This document shows, piece after piece, positions 3,093 through 24,144 of a stretch of DNA of 64,000 nucleotides (the stretch's first letter is position 1; each line of letters begins with the position of its first letter). The position numbers and the translations under genes were made by a program. Location of the stretch: the NCBI GenBank assembly GCA_017858135.1, contig JAFMBY010000001.1, forward strand, positions 18,628 to 82,627, given 5' to 3'. The notes beneath the pieces are model-generated. The model had not been told where the DNA came from. It saw only the letters and a program-made list of their open reading frames with translations, and did no database searches. Source of the stretch: Porticoccaceae bacterium (lineage in GTDB: Bacteria > Pseudomonadota > Gammaproteobacteria > Pseudomonadales > Porticoccaceae).

Positions 3093-3773
3093 GTGGATCA
3101 GGATCAATTAAAGCGCGCAGTCGCTGCAGCCGCTGTCGAGTACACATTAAGCAAGATCAACCCCGACAGTATTGTGGGTATCGGCACCGGCTCAACCGCT
3201 AACTGCTTTATCGATTTACTCGCCGAACACAAACATTGCTTTCAATCAGCAGTAGCCAGTTCTGATGCTTCAGCTGAGCGTCTTCGCGGTCATGGCATTG
3301 AGGTTATAGAGCTCAATGCCGCCGCTGAGGTTACTATCTACATTGATGGCGCCGACGAAGCTAATCCCCATCTCGAACTCATCAAGGGCGGTGGCGCGGC
3401 ACTGACCAGAGAAAAAATTGTCACCGCCGTAGCCAATGAGTTTGTCTGTATTGCCGATGAAAGCAAATGGGTGGACTACCTCGGCACTTTCCCTCTGCCC
3501 GTAGAAGTTATTCCCATGGCGCGTAGCTATGTTGCGCGGGAACTGGTGAAACTAGGCGGTGATCCCGTTTGGCGTGAAAACGTGGTAACCGACAATGGCA
3601 ATCAAATCCTGGACGTACACCATCTCTACCCAGTCGCATCTGCGTGCGCACTTGAGGAAAAAATCAATCACATTACCGGCGTAGTCACTAATGGGTTCTT
3701 CGCGCTGAAACCAGCGGATATATTATTTTTGGCAACTCAGCAAGGTATTGTTACCCACCACCCAAAAACATAA
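3093..3773 (+). CDS. rpiA: Ribose-5-phosphate isomerase A
   Basis: [27 protein letters not shown]; GAGG SD before GTG start. Confidence 0.97.
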
Positions 3774-3788
3774 CAAGCGAGCGAAACT

Positions 3789-4784
3789 ATGAAGAAGTAC
3801 CATGTCTGTGGTCTCGGCAATGCCCTGGTCGACACAGAAATTGAAGTGACGGAAAAGAACCTCAATGAGCTGAATATTGAAAAAGGCTTGATGACTTTGG
3901 TCGACGAAGAGCGTCAGCATTTCTTGCAGGCCAGCCTCAGCGACCATTTGGTAATGTCCAAGCGTGCTTGCGGCGGCTCTGCTGCAAACACAGTTATTTC
4001 GCTAAGTCAGTTTGGCGGCAAGAGCTTTTTGTCTTGCAAGGTAGCGAACGACGATAATGGTCAGTTCTATATGCAGGATCTGCTTGATAATGGTGTTGAT
4101 CACAATGCACATGCACAGATCTCGGAGGGTATTACAGGAAAATGTTTGGTGATGATCACCGATGATGCCGACCGCACCATGAACACGTTTCTCGGCATCA
4201 GCTCCGAACTCTCCAGCGCCGATATTGATGCAGAGGCCATCAGTAACTCAGAGTATCTGTATATTGAGGGCTATCTGGTCACCGGGGAAAGTTCCCTACA
4301 CGCCATTCATGAAGCCTGCGATATCGCCCGGCAAGCAGGGACCAAAATTGCCCTCAGCTTATCGGATCCAGGGATTGTCGAACATTTTCACGACAGTCTA
4401 AAAAGCATTGTCGGGAATGGCGTTGATCTGCTGTTCTGCAATGAACAGGAAGCGCTGAGCTGGTGTCAGACAGACGATCTCGATCAGGCGCTAGAGCATT
4501 TGCAGGATAGCGCTGCGCAGTTTGCAGTCACTCTCGGCAGCAACGGTTCAGTGGTGTTTGATGGCAATGACTATCTGCGCGCAGCGGCACAACCTGTTAC
4601 CGCTATCGACACCAATGGGGCAGGTGATATGTTCGCCGGAGCCTATCTCTACGGCTTGACGCACGGATACTCCTGTCTGTCGGCAGCGGTATTTGCCAAT
4701 CGCGCAGCCAGTGCAGTGGTCGGTCAATATGGGCCTCGTCTGCATAGCGCCGAGTACGATGGCTTAAAAGAAGGGTTAAATTAA
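3789..4784 (+). CDS. PfkB-family carbohydrate kinase (adenosine/inosine kinase-like)
   Basis: GLGNALVD, CGGSAANT, DTNGAGDMFAG motifs. Confidence 0.88.
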   Translation: MKKYHVCGLGNALVDTEIEVTEKNLNELNIEKGLMTLVDEERQHFLQASLSDHLVMSKRACGGSAANTVISLSQFGGKSFLSCKVANDDNGQFYMQDLLDNGVDHNAHAQISEGITGKCLVMITDDADRTMNTFLGISSELSSADIDAEAISNSEYLYIEGYLVTGESSLHAIHEACDIARQAGTKIALSLSDPGIVEHFHDSLKSIVGNGVDLLFCNEQEALSWCQTDDLDQALEHLQDSAAQFAVTLGSNGSVVFDGNDYLRAAAQPVTAIDTNGAGDMFAGAYLYGLTHGYSCLSAAVFANRAASAVVGQYGPRLHSAEYDGLKEGLN

Positions 4785-20631: not shown

Positions 20632-21288
20632 ATGTCGCAGTCGACGTCAAAACCAACGCTTTCAGTATTTGATCAGTTTGTAGTTCAAGCCGATCAGGCT
20701 CTACGCACACTTGCGGGCAGCGCACCAGCGCCTCAACGAGGCTCACCTGGCAAACATGCATCGGAAAGCGAGTTGTCAGAGCAGGAACGGCGGCATGCAG
20801 CAGGGTTAATGCGCGTCAATCATTCCGGCGAAGTCTGTGCGCAAGCGCTTTATCAGGGTCAGGCTCTTACCGCGAAGCTTCCTGAAGTGGGTCAGCAGAT
20901 GGCTGAAGCAGCGGCTGAAGAGATAGACCATCTGGCTTGGTGCGAAGAGCGAATCAGTCAGCTTGATGGTAGAACCAGTCTGCTCAATCCCCTGTGGTAT
21001 GCCGCCTCGTTTGGTATTGGTGCCGCAGCAGGCTTGATTAGTGACAAGCTTAGCCTCGGTTTTGTCGCCGCCACCGAGGAGCAGGTCTGTAATCACCTGC
21101 AAGCCCATTTAGACAAACTGCCTGAGAATGATCACAAAAGCCGCGCTGTGATTGAACAGATGCTGGTCGATGAAAAACATCATGCCGAAAGCGCACTCGA
21201 TGCCGGTGGCCACCCATTTCCAAGACCGGTGAAAAAACTTATGACTCTGGTCTCCGGCGCAATGACTGCAAGCAGTTATCGCCTCTAG
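20632..21288 (+). CDS. coq7: Demethoxyubiquinone hydroxylase (di-iron)
   Basis: [34 protein letters not shown] di-iron motifs. Confidence 0.94.
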
Positions 21289-21299
21289 TCAAAACGCCC

Positions 21300-22274
21300 T
21301 TAATCGAACAGCATCGACTGAGGCTCGTGGGGGTTTTCCAAATCGCGAGCCAAATCGACAATCTTCTCCGACAACCAGCGATGAATGGGCGAACCCATCG
21401 TGCGCTTATGCTGAAGTAATACCAACGGAACTGTTCCCTCGTGAGGAAGGTCGTCGGGGTAGGCTTTGGTGACGATACGATAAAGCTCGCGCTCCATACC
21501 AGAACCAAATTTAGCCGCCACCATCAAGCAATCAGAAGCACAGATGGTTTCAATCGCTGTCATCAGCTGGTTGGTGACCATGGCTTTTGAACGCTGACGA
21601 CCCTGCTCTCGGAGCGCCCGGTCAAAACGGGCATCCGTGCGCGCACTGACACGCTTAGCAATCAACAAATAGTACTGAACAAAGGGGTATTGAAGAATTT
21701 CATCCAGACTGACACGGGTTTTCTTCGCTAGTGGATGACCTTCACGCATCCAGATGGACGGACTAAAAATAGCCAAGTGAAGCGCAGTAATCTCGCTGGT
21801 GATATCTCTTTTTATATCAATGGCAAAATCCAATACGCCATCAGCCAACTCTCCGGCAACAGAATCGGTCTCACTAGAAATAGACAGAATCACCCCCGGC
21901 GCATATTTGTTCAATAGTGCGGTCAACTGAGACGCGAGCGAGATCGCAATAAATTCAGGGATCGCGATAGTAATCTCTCCAACATAGGTAGCTGGATCAA
22001 ATTCGCCGTCCGTCACCATATCGAGAATCCCGTCGAGCATTATTGGCAACCTTAACTGCAACTCCAGCGCCTTGGGTGTGGGAATTAATATATTGCCGGT
22101 ACGTGTAAACAACGGATCATCCAGCTGCTGACGCAGCCGTTGCAATACACGACTCATCGCCGGCTGAGTAATAAACAGACGTTGCGCAGCGCGAGTAACA
22201 CTTTTCTCTTCTAGTAGAGCTTGAAGCGCAACCAATAAATTGAGGTCCATGCGGGACAGTTTTTGGAGATTCAT
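21300..22274 (-). CDS. LysR-family transcriptional regulator (NodD/LeuO-like)
   Basis: DLNLLVALQALLEEKSVTRAAQRLFITQPAMSRVLQRLR HTH; LDDPLFTR; substrate-binding domain. Confidence 0.93.
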   Translation of the reverse strand: MNLQKLSRMDLNLLVALQALLEEKSVTRAAQRLFITQPAMSRVLQRLRQQLDDPLFTRTGNILIPTPKALELQLRLPIMLDGILDMVTDGEFDPATYVGEITIAIPEFIAISLASQLTALLNKYAPGVILSISSETDSVAGELADGVLDFAIDIKRDITSEITALHLAIFSPSIWMREGHPLAKKTRVSLDEILQYPFVQYYLLIAKRVSARTDARFDRALREQGRQRSKAMVTNQLMTAIETICASDCLMVAAKFGSGMERELYRIVTKAYPDDLPHEGTVPLVLLQHKRTMGSPIHRWLSEKIVDLARDLENPHEPQSMLFD

Positions 22275-22288
22275 GGGCCACTCTCATG

Positions 22289-22356
22289 TCATTACAAAAT
22301 GGTATATAAATAATGCAAACAATGCATTTGGATTATGACATAGCTATCAGTATATT
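22289..22356 (+). promoter_or_regulatory. LysR operator plus sigma70 promoter, copy 1
   Basis: T-N11-A box, ATGCA-N5-TGCAT (22313-22327) abutting -35 TTGGAT, 17-bp spacer, -10 TATATT. Confidence 0.72.
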
Positions 22357-22402
22357 GTCACACATAGGGCGATGTGCCCATAAACACCCACGGAGATAGA
22401 CC

Positions 22403-22525
22403 ATGACACTCGTATATATTCTAATCGGATTCACTGGATTAGCGGGTGCTGCAATTGCGAAAGATGACTTCGCGAACGTTAAAGCACCAAAAATCAAAGC
22501 TTCAGATAAGACGCTGGCCCACTAA
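22403..22525 (+). CDS. Small 40-aa protein MTLVYILIGFTGLAGAAIAKDDFANVKAPKIKASDKTLAH
   Basis: GGAG SD 7 nt upstream; lies between promoter copy 1 and a terminator; hydrophobic N-terminal half; below the ORF-track cutoff. Confidence 0.7.
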   Translation: MTLVYILIGFTGLAGAAIAKDDFANVKAPKIKASDKTLAH

Positions 22526-22577
22526 GCCAACGGCTTCTAGCCAAACCCCTCTTAATCCTTGCTATAGGATTTTTTAT

Positions 22578-22606
22578 AGGGGCCCATCACTGGGCCCCTT
22601 TTTTTT
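22578..22606 (+). terminator. Rho-independent terminator of unit 1
   Basis: AGGGGCCCA-tcac-TGGGCCCCT followed by a T run. Confidence 0.85.
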
Positions 22607-22705
22607 ATCCCGTAAAAAAGTCTCTCTGAATATTCTCTATGCACGATTTACATTGCGCGTGGTCAGAATGCGATACATTTCCTCACCACAGTTTCCTTCT
22701 CTACA

Positions 22706-22773
22706 TCATTACAAAATGGTATAACTATAATGCAAATAATGCATTTGCAGTATGATGCTGAGATTTCTAATAT
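22706..22773 (+). promoter_or_regulatory. LysR operator plus sigma70 promoter, copy 2
   Basis: 44/50 nt identical to copy 1 without gaps; ATGCA-N5-TGCAT (22730-22744), -35 TTGCAG, 17 bp, -10 TAATAT. Confidence 0.72.
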
Positions 22774-22779
22774 AAGGGC

Positions 22780-22903
22780 ATTGAAGTTGTACACAGTTTT
22801 CAAGACTTGCTGATTAGCAGTTCTTAACAGTTTTACCCCTACCCCTTCCTTTGTGATTTATCCAAGGATTTTTTAAGGAGCCTTCCTCAGGCTCCTTTTT
22901 TTT
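22780..22903 (+). ncRNA. Candidate ~125-nt small regulatory RNA
   Basis: Bounded by promoter copy 2 and a strong terminator; no SD/ATG ORF; C/U-rich CCCCT repeats and small hairpins. Confidence 0.6.
22875..22903 (+). terminator. Rho-independent terminator of unit 2
   Basis: AAGGAGCCT-tcctc-AGGCTCCTT followed by a T run. Confidence 0.85.
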
Positions 22904-22934: not shown

Positions 22935-23354
22935 TCAGGCTTCAATCACCTCATAGCTATGAGTCATCTCTACTCCAGCAGCATTGAGCATAATTGATGC
23001 AGAGCAATACTTTTCAGCTGACAGCTCTACGGCACGCTTAACCTGACTCTCTTTGAGGCCGATTCCAGTCACTAGAAAACGTAGATGAATCTTGCTAAAC
23101 ACGGCCGGCACGGCATCGACTCGCTCAGCCTCGACCTCAGTGCGGCAATCGGTCACCTGCTGGCGACTTTTTGTCAGCATGCTCATTACGTCAAATGAAG
23201 CACAACCGCCCAAGCCTAGCAGCAACATCTCCATAGGCCGAATGCCCATATTGCGACCACCCTGACTTTCGGCACCATCCATGACTGCCGTGTGGCCGCT
23301 CCCAGACTCACCGAGAAACATAACACCGTCTACCCATTTGATTGTCGCTTTCAT
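22935..23354 (-). CDS. OsmC/YhfA family protein
   Basis: Start ATG 23354 (MKATIKW); RPMEMLLLGLGGCASFDV and SAEKYCSASIM with two conserved Cys; divergent from crp as yhfA usually is. Confidence 0.9.
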   Translation of the reverse strand: MKATIKWVDGVMFLGESGSGHTAVMDGAESQGGRNMGIRPMEMLLLGLGGCASFDVMSMLTKSRQQVTDCRTEVEAERVDAVPAVFSKIHLRFLVTGIGLKESQVKRAVELSAEKYCSASIMLNAAGVEMTHSYEVIEA

Positions 23355-23508
23355 AGTTTGCCTCGTTTTTGATGGGGCAAAGATTACCATACCGAATGCT
23401 GTAAAATTTATTCATAACAAGGTTTTTTTGACTACTATTAGTTTTAAGAGTCGCATATAAACCTCATATAAAGCGGCATGTTGCTAAACTTGTAAATGGA
23501 GAAACAAA

Positions 23509-24144
23509 TTGGCGCCTGCACCTCTCACACCGCATATTGAAAATGTGGAAGAATTCTTATCTCACTGTCACAGACGCCGATATCCGGCAAAAAGCACGAT
23601 TATTTATGCTGGCGACCAAGGAGATACCCTCTACTACATTATCAAGGGCTCGGTCACAGTCATGATTGAAGATGATAGTGACGGTAAAGAAATAATCCTT
23701 GCCTATCTTAATCCAGGTGATTTTTTTGGCGAAATGGGTCTCTTTGACCAACAGCACCGCAGCGCTTGGATCCGCACAAAGGCCGAATGTGAGGTAGGGG
23801 AAATTAGCTACGCTAAATTTATTGAGCTAAGCAACAAGTACCCGGCATTTCTCTTTGCCATCAGCAAGCAGGTCGCGCAACGTCTGAGAGACACAACCCG
23901 CAAAGTCAGTGACCTTGCATTTCTTGATGTTACCGGTCGCGTGGCGAGAACGTTGCTGGATCTTTGCAAAGAGCCTGACGCAATGACCCATCCAGATGGT
24001 ATGCAAATCAAGATTACGCGCCAGGAGATCGGCCGCATCGTCGGCTGCTCAAGGGAGATGGTTGGACGTGTGCTCAAAGAGCTGGAAGGTCAGGGACTGG
24101 TGTCCGTGGCCGGCAAAACCATGGTGGTATTTGGCACCCGCTAA
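23509..24144 (+). CDS. crp: cAMP receptor protein (Crp/Vfr)
   Basis: [18 protein letters not shown] cNMP pocket, [24 protein letters not shown]; TTG start with GGAG SD. Confidence 0.96.

Follow-up and report, generated by a model that had tools for sequence, protein, structure and literature searches.

What does a bacterium encode when the gene of a LysR-type transcriptional regulator (LTTR) stands back to back with two short transcription units, each preceded by its own copy of nearly the same operator and promoter? This is the question raised by a cassette in the 64,000-nucleotide stretch of Porticoccaceae DNA analysed here (the window; contig JAFMBY010000001.1), whose host belongs to the SAR92 clade (GTDB genus HTCC2207, family Porticoccaceae) and has a genome of 2.44 Mb that is 96.5% complete. 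Our answer, to which we would give a probability of about two in three on the strength of comparative sequence analysis, is that the cassette comprises an LTTR and sibling small RNAs (sRNAs) of the SAR92/HTCC2207 lineage, one of them a dual-function RNA, which act in trans with Hfq. The RNA family and the small protein are undescribed; regulator-linked sibling sRNAs are already known as a principle. The layout of LTTR gene and two units recurs in about 55 related genomes, and near-identical loci are found in HTCC2207, in MOLA455, in the SAR92 isolates H921 and H231 and in many Porticoccaceae metagenome-assembled genomes (MAGs).

What drives the two units?

The feature that first sets this locus apart is a duplicated operator–promoter. 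The original prediction, made by a model from the letters of the window, had pointed to two segments of the plus strand, 22289-22338 and 22706-22755, and these do match without gaps at 44 of 50 positions; a repeat search recovers them as a 50-nucleotide (nt) direct repeat of 88% identity. A degenerate 40-nt version of the motif, scanned across the 2.44 Mb with up to three mismatches allowed, occurs at exactly two sites, both in the window, and the reversed pattern, used as a control, gave 0 matches. Reading the two copies also bears out the arrangement that had been described for each, namely a T-N11-A palindrome abutting a -35 box, a 17-nt spacer and a -10 box. Copy 1 consists of an ATTAC box, a GCATA-like half-site, the 15-bp palindrome ATGCAAACAATGCAT (22313-22327) and the -35 hexamer TTGGAT (22328-22333), followed after 17 nt by the -10 box TATATT (22351-22356), which would place the start of transcription near 22363. 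Copy 2 has the 15-bp palindrome ATGCAAATAATGCAT (22730-22744), the -35 hexamer TTGCAG (22745-22750), a spacer of the same length and the -10 box TAATAT (22768-22773), with a probable start near 22779-22780. The core of the palindrome, TGCA-N5-TGCA, is itself the T-N11-A box, and in copy 1 this dyad (TGCAAACAATGCA, 22314-22326) lies 40 nt from the lysR start codon, abuts the -35 box of unit 1 and is kept in relatives. Indeed, across about 55 related genomes a single consensus describes both copies: ATTAC-N6-GCATA-N6-ATGCAAAYAATGCAT-TTGGAT-17 nt-TATATT.

The -10 boxes are good, and just three of six positions in either -35 hexamer agree with TTGACA. A generic sigma-70 promoter scan missed both promoters because their -35 boxes are weak, and such weakness fits promoters that depend on an activator. 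The same scan does predict a minus-strand promoter, GTGACA-18-CATAAT, running from 22361 to 22332 and suited to lysR, which fits the overlap of copy 1 with a divergent LysR promoter that had been proposed.

Is the neighbouring LysR protein their regulator?

The regulator gene (21300-22274, minus strand) encodes 324 amino acids with both expected Pfam domains, PF00126 HTH_1 (E 6.9e-18) and PF03466 LysR_substrate (E 1.6e-16). It has no NCBIfam equivalog at cut-off: BsrA, the best model, reaches 104 of the 480 bits required, and the GcvA model matches it at only E 2e-7, far below its cut-off. An OxyR-like identity was considered and set aside, OxyR being absent among the best 25 of 51 NCBIfam matches; no VtlR/LsrB model is among those 25 either, a comparison by model and not with VtlR/LsrB directly. 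Orthologs are present in 24 of the 25 same-genus genomes searched, and those of Porticoccus and other Porticoccaceae are 47-52% identical.

We infer that this LysR is the factor recognising both operator copies, and the best indirect support for it as the cognate factor is that the operator varies in step with the regulator and accompanies the RNAs where these have become unlinked from lysR. In Porticoccus, for example, where the LysR is 51% identical, two tandem units again follow lysR, and they have in common a different box, AATACATTT(G/C)A(G/A)TCATG, with seeds CUCCCUC immediately 5' of their terminators. The genomes of genus g31 that were checked by place, G092 and G136, have their LysR ortholog (about 70% identical) and their RNA units on separate contigs, and the units retain a TGCATTTGnnTATG promoter element although they are unlinked from lysR.

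It could of course be that the RNAs are real and that some other DNA-binding protein recognises ATGCA-N5-TGCAT, the linkage to lysR being historical. The g31 units, which do not adjoin lysR, speak for this, as does a lineage (L105-L110, described below) that has lysR without a recognisable unit beside it. We nevertheless think it unlikely, given that the palindrome is a T-N11-A box at the classical divergent position, that the units are linked to lysR in four genera or lineages, that the Porticoccus box is altered in both units together, exactly where the LysR has diverged, and that a lysR ortholog is still encoded in all ten of the g31 and g23 genomes tested.

What do the two units encode?

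Unit 1 is a candidate for a dual-function RNA and would be about 244 nt long (22363..22606, plus strand; the ends are those implied by the -10 box and the terminator), made up in order of a 5' hairpin, a small open reading frame (ORF) and a 3' sRNA module. The hairpin in the 5' untranslated region, GGGC/GCCC (22367-22379), changes in both arms among relatives, for example to GAGC/GCTC. The ORF (22403..22525, plus strand) encodes 40 amino acids, MTLVYILIGFTGLAGAAIAKDDFANVKAPKIKASDKTLAH, behind a GGAG Shine–Dalgarno sequence (22392-22395) that is found 7-9 nt upstream of the ORF almost everywhere. Across 38 distinct nucleotide versions the ratio of non-synonymous to synonymous polymorphism (pN/pS) is 0.24 in frame, where the two alternative frames give 0.95 and 3.2, and within the first 29 codons the variable columns number 11, 6 and 25 at codon positions 1, 2 and 3. 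The peptide consists of a single hydrophobic helix and then a charged, net basic tail, whose varying length in relatives gives products of 34-47 amino acids, and we would predict it to be a single-helix membrane peptide. It has no Pfam or NCBIfam match, and when 1.8 billion representatives were searched exhaustively without a profile, no more than 13 clusters came back, and these have one and the same N-terminus. Because the ORF is under purifying selection, has a conserved Shine–Dalgarno sequence and belongs to this 13-cluster family, we regard it as a real, lineage-specific small protein.

Just 15 nt beyond the end of the ORF the conserved 3' module begins (type A; 22540..22606, plus strand). 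It contains the seed CCAAACCCCUCUUAAUCC (CCCCUCUUAAUCC at 22546-22558), the hairpin AAUCCU/AGGAUU (22554-22571), a U-rich linker, a terminator and a U-tail, and the consensus across relatives is (A/U)ACCCCUCUUAAUCCUUGCUAUAGGAUUUUUU followed by a G+C-rich hairpin and a U-tail. Among 44 distinct versions of the module the seed CCCCTCTTAATCC and the longer stretch ACCCCTCTTAATCCT are almost invariant; the terminator stem covaries, with compensating forms such as GGGGCCC/GGGCCCC, GGGACCT/AGGTCCC and GGACCC/GGGTCC. The claim that each unit ends in its own strong intrinsic terminator was confirmed by a terminator scan, which finds one stem at 22578-22599 and another at 22875-22897, both followed by a T-run. 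R1, our covariance model for the type A module, scores 81.9 bits (E 2.5e-15) on the module of unit 1 and has exactly two matches in the genome, at 22540-22606 and at 22830-22903, that is, in unit 1 and in unit 2.

Unit 2, in which we see no conserved ORF, is the candidate non-coding sRNA (type B; about 125 nt, 22779..22903, plus strand) and scores 123.6 bits with R2, a covariance model of the whole unit with 125 positions and three helices that aligns 103 instances. Its parts are stem-loop 1 (about 22802-22825), a single-stranded seed UUUUACCCCUACCCCUUCC (about 22831-22849), stem-loop 2 (22849-22867), a U-stretch, the terminator (22875-22897) and a U-tail; the consensus runs UUUACCCCUA(A)CCCCU(U)CUUUG, then hairpin, U-stretch, hairpin and U-tail. 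In the R2 alignment 90.3% of cells are paired, compared with 70.5% in shuffles, double changes occur in 22 of 25 pairs, and the covariation score is 0.404 against 0.139 for shuffled alignments (0 of 500 shuffles as high, slid controls at most 0.126), all of which is somewhat inflated by having been counted on an alignment fitted to R2 itself. Even among the 50 type-B sequences taken alone, however, the paired positions of stem-loop 1 are occupied by many different pair types, and independent single-sequence folds of 46 versions give the same three-hairpin shape with the seed mostly unpaired (for type B, its mean probability of being unpaired is mostly 0.5-0.9).

The motif CCCCU(C)UU is common to both RNAs, and an almost invariant seed, CCCCUCUU, lies in the conserved 3' module of both units. 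Since the seed is common to the two, and is even identical (AAACCCCUCUU) in a streamlined SAR92 subclade, we take units 1 and 2 to be true siblings. As regards novelty, the system had been flagged as unfamiliar, and this stands: no family was matched in an Rfam search at E up to 10 (best E 0.22), the AbcR and ar15 families being absent at that limit. The sub-threshold matches, to L20_leader (23 bits, cut-off 58.7) and to suhB/mmgR (22 bits, cut-off 41), are driven by the terminators and were rejected.

Taken together, these features make unit 1 resemble a dual-function RNA of the SgrS/SgrT kind, with unit 2 as its non-coding sibling. The original prediction had one LTTR co-activating a small-protein mRNA and a noncoding RNA, and the in-silico tests all speak in its favour, among them the conserved operators, their joint change in Porticoccus, the promoter element kept by the unlinked g31 units, the selection on the ORF, the covariation in unit 2 and the lack of an Rfam match; what has to be revised is the view of unit 1, which is not merely an mRNA and also carries a module of seed, hairpin and terminator.

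Could it simply be a gene for a small protein?

One might argue that only the peptide matters, with unit 1 as its mRNA, unit 2 as a decaying, ORF-less duplicate and the 3' ends as mere terminators. The ORF is, after all, clearly under coding selection, a promoter and 3' architecture common to both units is what tandem duplication would leave behind, and the seeds have yielded no targets. What makes this explanation distinctly improbable is a small-genome (about 1.4-Mb) SAR92 subclade (L089-L104; for example L093, reverse-complemented, 3489-3920), in which the small ORF has been lost, unit 2 is retained and what is left of unit 1 is its promoter, a non-coding body and the type A module; the part of unit 1 that survives streamlining is thus the module of seed, hairpin and terminator and not the ORF. 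Moreover, ACCCCTCTTAATCCT, which is no part of the terminator, is better conserved than either the C-terminus of the ORF or the terminator stems, and in 50 genomes unit 2 has kept both a conserved seed and a stem-loop 1 that covaries, as a relic would not.

How far does the cassette extend, and how does it vary?

R1 finds matches in 56 of 151 Porticoccaceae genomes. Our closer survey covered 62 sources (61 loci plus the window), of which 55 have the type A module, 50 the type B module and 40 the small ORF. The verified spread is four genera or lineages, the five of our own tally being slightly inflated because a match in genus g23 is probably a false positive: this R1 match (L144, G087:C3, about 2505-2567, E 3e-5) looks like an ordinary terminator, its hairpins standing directly behind a coding gene with no CCCCU seed before them.

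Variants of the layout are instructive. In the subclade of G002, G018, G014 and G006 a non-coding type A unit comes first and the ORF unit second, and there is no type B unit; G010 has one unit only. Genus g35 retains the LysR-adjacent layout. In genus g25 (L147, G078:C16, about 2237-2544) a diverged small ORF (MALVYIMMSFAGLTGAAIARDEL...) stops 8 nt before operator copy 2 and has no terminator of its own; transcription of the ORF probably continues into the sibling sRNA, for which there would also be a separate internal promoter. The unlinked units of g31 (L145, that is G136:C27, about 2263-2516; L141/L142, that is G092:C14) include one that encodes a related 28-amino-acid peptide, MTMEIVYGAMIFSCVLLAAIATQDFMSS, 5' of a ACCCCUCUUAUCC module. 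These genera can be read as successive states of a dual-function RNA, with ORF and seed together, the seed only, the ORF reading into the sibling, or the units unlinked from their regulator.

In lineage L105-L110, where the LysR is about 70% identical, the region next to lysR (for example L105, reverse-complemented, 3440-3640) is AT-rich and holds no recognisable sRNA unit. OsmC and crp are absent from these loci, trpC follows instead, and a diverged T-N11-A box, TGTCATAATAACA, remains.

How might the cassette work?

Both units show in silico the anatomy of Hfq-type sRNAs, with seed, hairpin, U-stretch and terminator, and the genome encodes an Hfq that is 77% identical to that of E. coli; csrA is also present. 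The scheme that we favour would run as follows. The LysR would bind the T-N11-A palindrome that abuts the weak -35 box of each near-identical promoter and, on some signal or ligand, activate both, at copy 1 probably also repressing its own divergent promoter. Promoter 1 would then give the RNA of about 244 nt, to be translated into the 40-amino-acid membrane peptide, with its 3' end, as part of the whole transcript or after processing, serving as an sRNA module with the seed CCCCUCUUAAUCC; promoter 2 would give the non-coding sibling of about 125 nt, with a related seed, ACCCCUACCCCUUCC, on the same scaffold. With the help of Hfq, both RNAs would pair their pyrimidine-rich seeds in trans with G-rich sites in mRNAs, most likely Shine–Dalgarno regions. 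Transcription, LysR binding, Hfq dependence and pairing with Shine–Dalgarno sequences are all steps that we infer. A search for contigs encoding the locus gave only long metagenome contigs, which are silent on where transcripts end.

Which mRNAs might be the targets?

It is here, and in the structural statistics, that the case for trans-acting sibling sRNAs has points to answer, and besides the inflated covariation figures for R2 there are several. The 3'-proximal hairpin of the type A module offers no covariation support, because its stem is invariant. In the translation-initiation regions of the window genome, seed A has 18 matches at or below -18 kcal/mol, a number that lies within the range of 8-44 found for shuffled seeds, and joint matches over 858 ortholog pairs, formed with the complete 2.21-Mb genome G023, fall below the mean for shuffled seeds. 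Two candidates that had seemed attractive also failed among 25-30 relatives: for an MFS transporter with the Shine–Dalgarno sequence GAGAGGGGG only a GGGGGU run is conserved, and for an aldehyde dehydrogenase (UUAAGAGGG) the complementarity is not kept.

Other parts of the search gave a similar picture. A whole-genome scan for seed complements and the scans of initiation regions showed no excess over shuffled seeds, and the pairing energies of the neighbouring genes (lysR, the small ORF, osmC, crp, coq7 and trpC) are average. The top single-genome match, at -26.1 kcal/mol to a TetR-family gene, was rejected as lying about 100 nt inside the coding region, and the reason for the top joint match, to a DUF692-type gene, is a conserved run of glycine-rich codons (GAGLGLR) that lies 3' of the true start.

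Two observations made along the way may deserve a mention in their own right. Orthologs of the MFS transporter (L148-L177; C43:7720-8970, minus strand, in the host's own genome) have an unusual GGGGGU ribosome-binding site in most of 30 genomes, and this run complements the ACCCCU/ACCCCC of the sRNA seeds, over a length that is too short for a target call. A DUF692-like gene, judged as such by eye, lies outside the window on the minus strand of contig C100 (reverse-strand offset about 22380-22530) directly after a Cys-rich small peptide ending in ...CGGEKAAQEGTCGGEKADSEGKCGGAA; this pair, which came to notice through the top and probably spurious joint match, resembles a bufferin-type operon for a ribosomally synthesised and post-translationally modified peptide (RiPP).

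Might the RNAs then act as a sponge for a protein, of the CsrA/RsmA type or for Hfq, and not pair with mRNAs at all? The genome does encode CsrA, the copies in the window have the GGA motifs AAGGAU, AAGGAG and AUAGGAU, and base-pairing targets were not found. We regard a sponge as very unlikely nonetheless: there are just one or two GGA motifs per RNA, they lie in stem arms and not in loops, the AAGGA motif of stem-loop 2 has become AAAGA in most relatives, and the element that is invariant is the C-rich stretch. Nor do the units qualify as CsrA-sequestering RNAs of the RsmY/RsmZ type, for which several conserved GGA motifs in loops or single-stranded regions would be expected. Finally, that the promoter- and terminator-like elements are idle and the region a conserved, non-transcribed spacer of regulatory or structural DNA is barely credible, since the helices of one strand, three in all, show substitutions that compensate each other and the ORF varies by codon position, which are signs of selection on RNA and on protein and not on DNA.

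What else lies at the locus?

Profile searches of the flanking genes (COQ7, LysR, OsmC, CRP) agree with the earlier statement that the cassette sits between coq7 and OsmC/crp, with COQ7 at 20632-21288, OsmC at 22935-23390 (or with its start at 23354) on the minus strand and CRP at 23509-24144. For OsmC the longest ORF, 22935-23390, gives 151 amino acids, and gene callers on identical metagenome contigs choose an internal Met, which has the better ribosome-binding site, and a product of 139 amino acids (MKATIKW...); the true start is probably 23354.

Why should one care about this locus?

SAR92/HTCC2207 bacteria are abundant members of the coastal and polar bacterioplankton, and a search of the literature found nothing relevant on sRNAs in SAR92 or HTCC2207. 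If read correctly, the locus is a well-defined, conserved riboregulatory module, with a regulator, two sibling sRNAs that have an invariant seed and a lineage-specific micropeptide that is predicted to sit in the membrane. It would warrant a new Rfam family, and an overlooked small protein could be added to the annotation of hundreds of marine genomes and MAGs. The series of lineages should also help in understanding how dual-function RNAs evolve and, if the reading is true, amounts to a natural experiment on how they are built and dismantled. A more ambitious thought, which we offer tentatively, is that the cassette might form the core of a post-transcriptional regulon that spans the Porticoccaceae, in which a ligand-sensing LTTR, the dual-function RNA (a membrane micropeptide with an anti-Shine–Dalgarno seed) and its sibling reprogramme transport or metabolism, and in which genome streamlining then discards the peptide and leaves the RNA part in place; if so, it would be a regulon core in abundant marine bacteria that are involved in degrading the organic matter of phytoplankton blooms.

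How does it compare with known systems?

Tandem sibling sRNAs are familiar from PrrF1/PrrF2, OmrA/OmrB and Qrr1-5, whose regulators are Fur, OmpR and LuxO with sigma-54. As in those systems, the units described here are neighbouring duplicates, each with the same regulated promoter, with a common seed and with lineage-specific gain and loss of copies; they differ in their regulator and belong to unrelated RNA families. The pairs GcvA-GcvB and OxyR-OxyS consist of single sRNAs, with neither sibling nor ORF, and the GcvB seed is G/U-rich. They resemble the cassette in that the sRNA gene is divergent from a LysR-type gene and the regulator box lies in the common intergenic region, whereas here there are also a sibling and an ORF, and neither RNA is matched in Rfam.

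Unit 1 resembles SgrS/SgrT in the architecture of the RNA itself, with a transcript of about 230-245 nt divergent from the regulator gene, a 5' ORF of about 40 amino acids and a conserved pairing region just 5' of the terminator; in silico, unit 1 does combine a small ORF and a separate pairing region on one short transcript, as an SgrS-like dual-function RNA should. Unit 1 is not a member of the SgrS family, because it has no Rfam SgrS match and its regulator is of the LysR type and not SgrR; in addition, the predicted membrane helix is unrelated to SgrT, and unit 1 is accompanied by a non-coding sibling behind another copy of its promoter. In the SgrR-SgrS/SgrT system of enteric bacteria, too, retention or use of the ORF differs among relatives (PMC2760806).

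The closest functional analogue is the VtlR/LsrB system with AbcR1/2, VrsA and small proteins. In Alphaproteobacteria abcR1, vrsA and atu1667, a gene for a small protein, have a promoter box in common through which the LTTR VtlR activates them directly (PMC7486931), and the mRNAs with which the sibling sRNAs AbcR1 and AbcR2 pair, by means of short C-rich motifs, are mainly those of transporters (PMC7486931; PMC5461406). The same elements, an LTTR, sibling sRNAs with a common promoter box and a small protein, can be read here from sequence alone. There is no sequence relationship between the two systems: the cassette has a lineage-specific gammaproteobacterial LTTR and an equally lineage-specific operator, ATGCA-N5-TGCAT, and its small protein is encoded on the sRNA transcript itself. 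Our reading would make this locus a gammaproteobacterial counterpart to the alphaproteobacterial VtlR-AbcR circuit.

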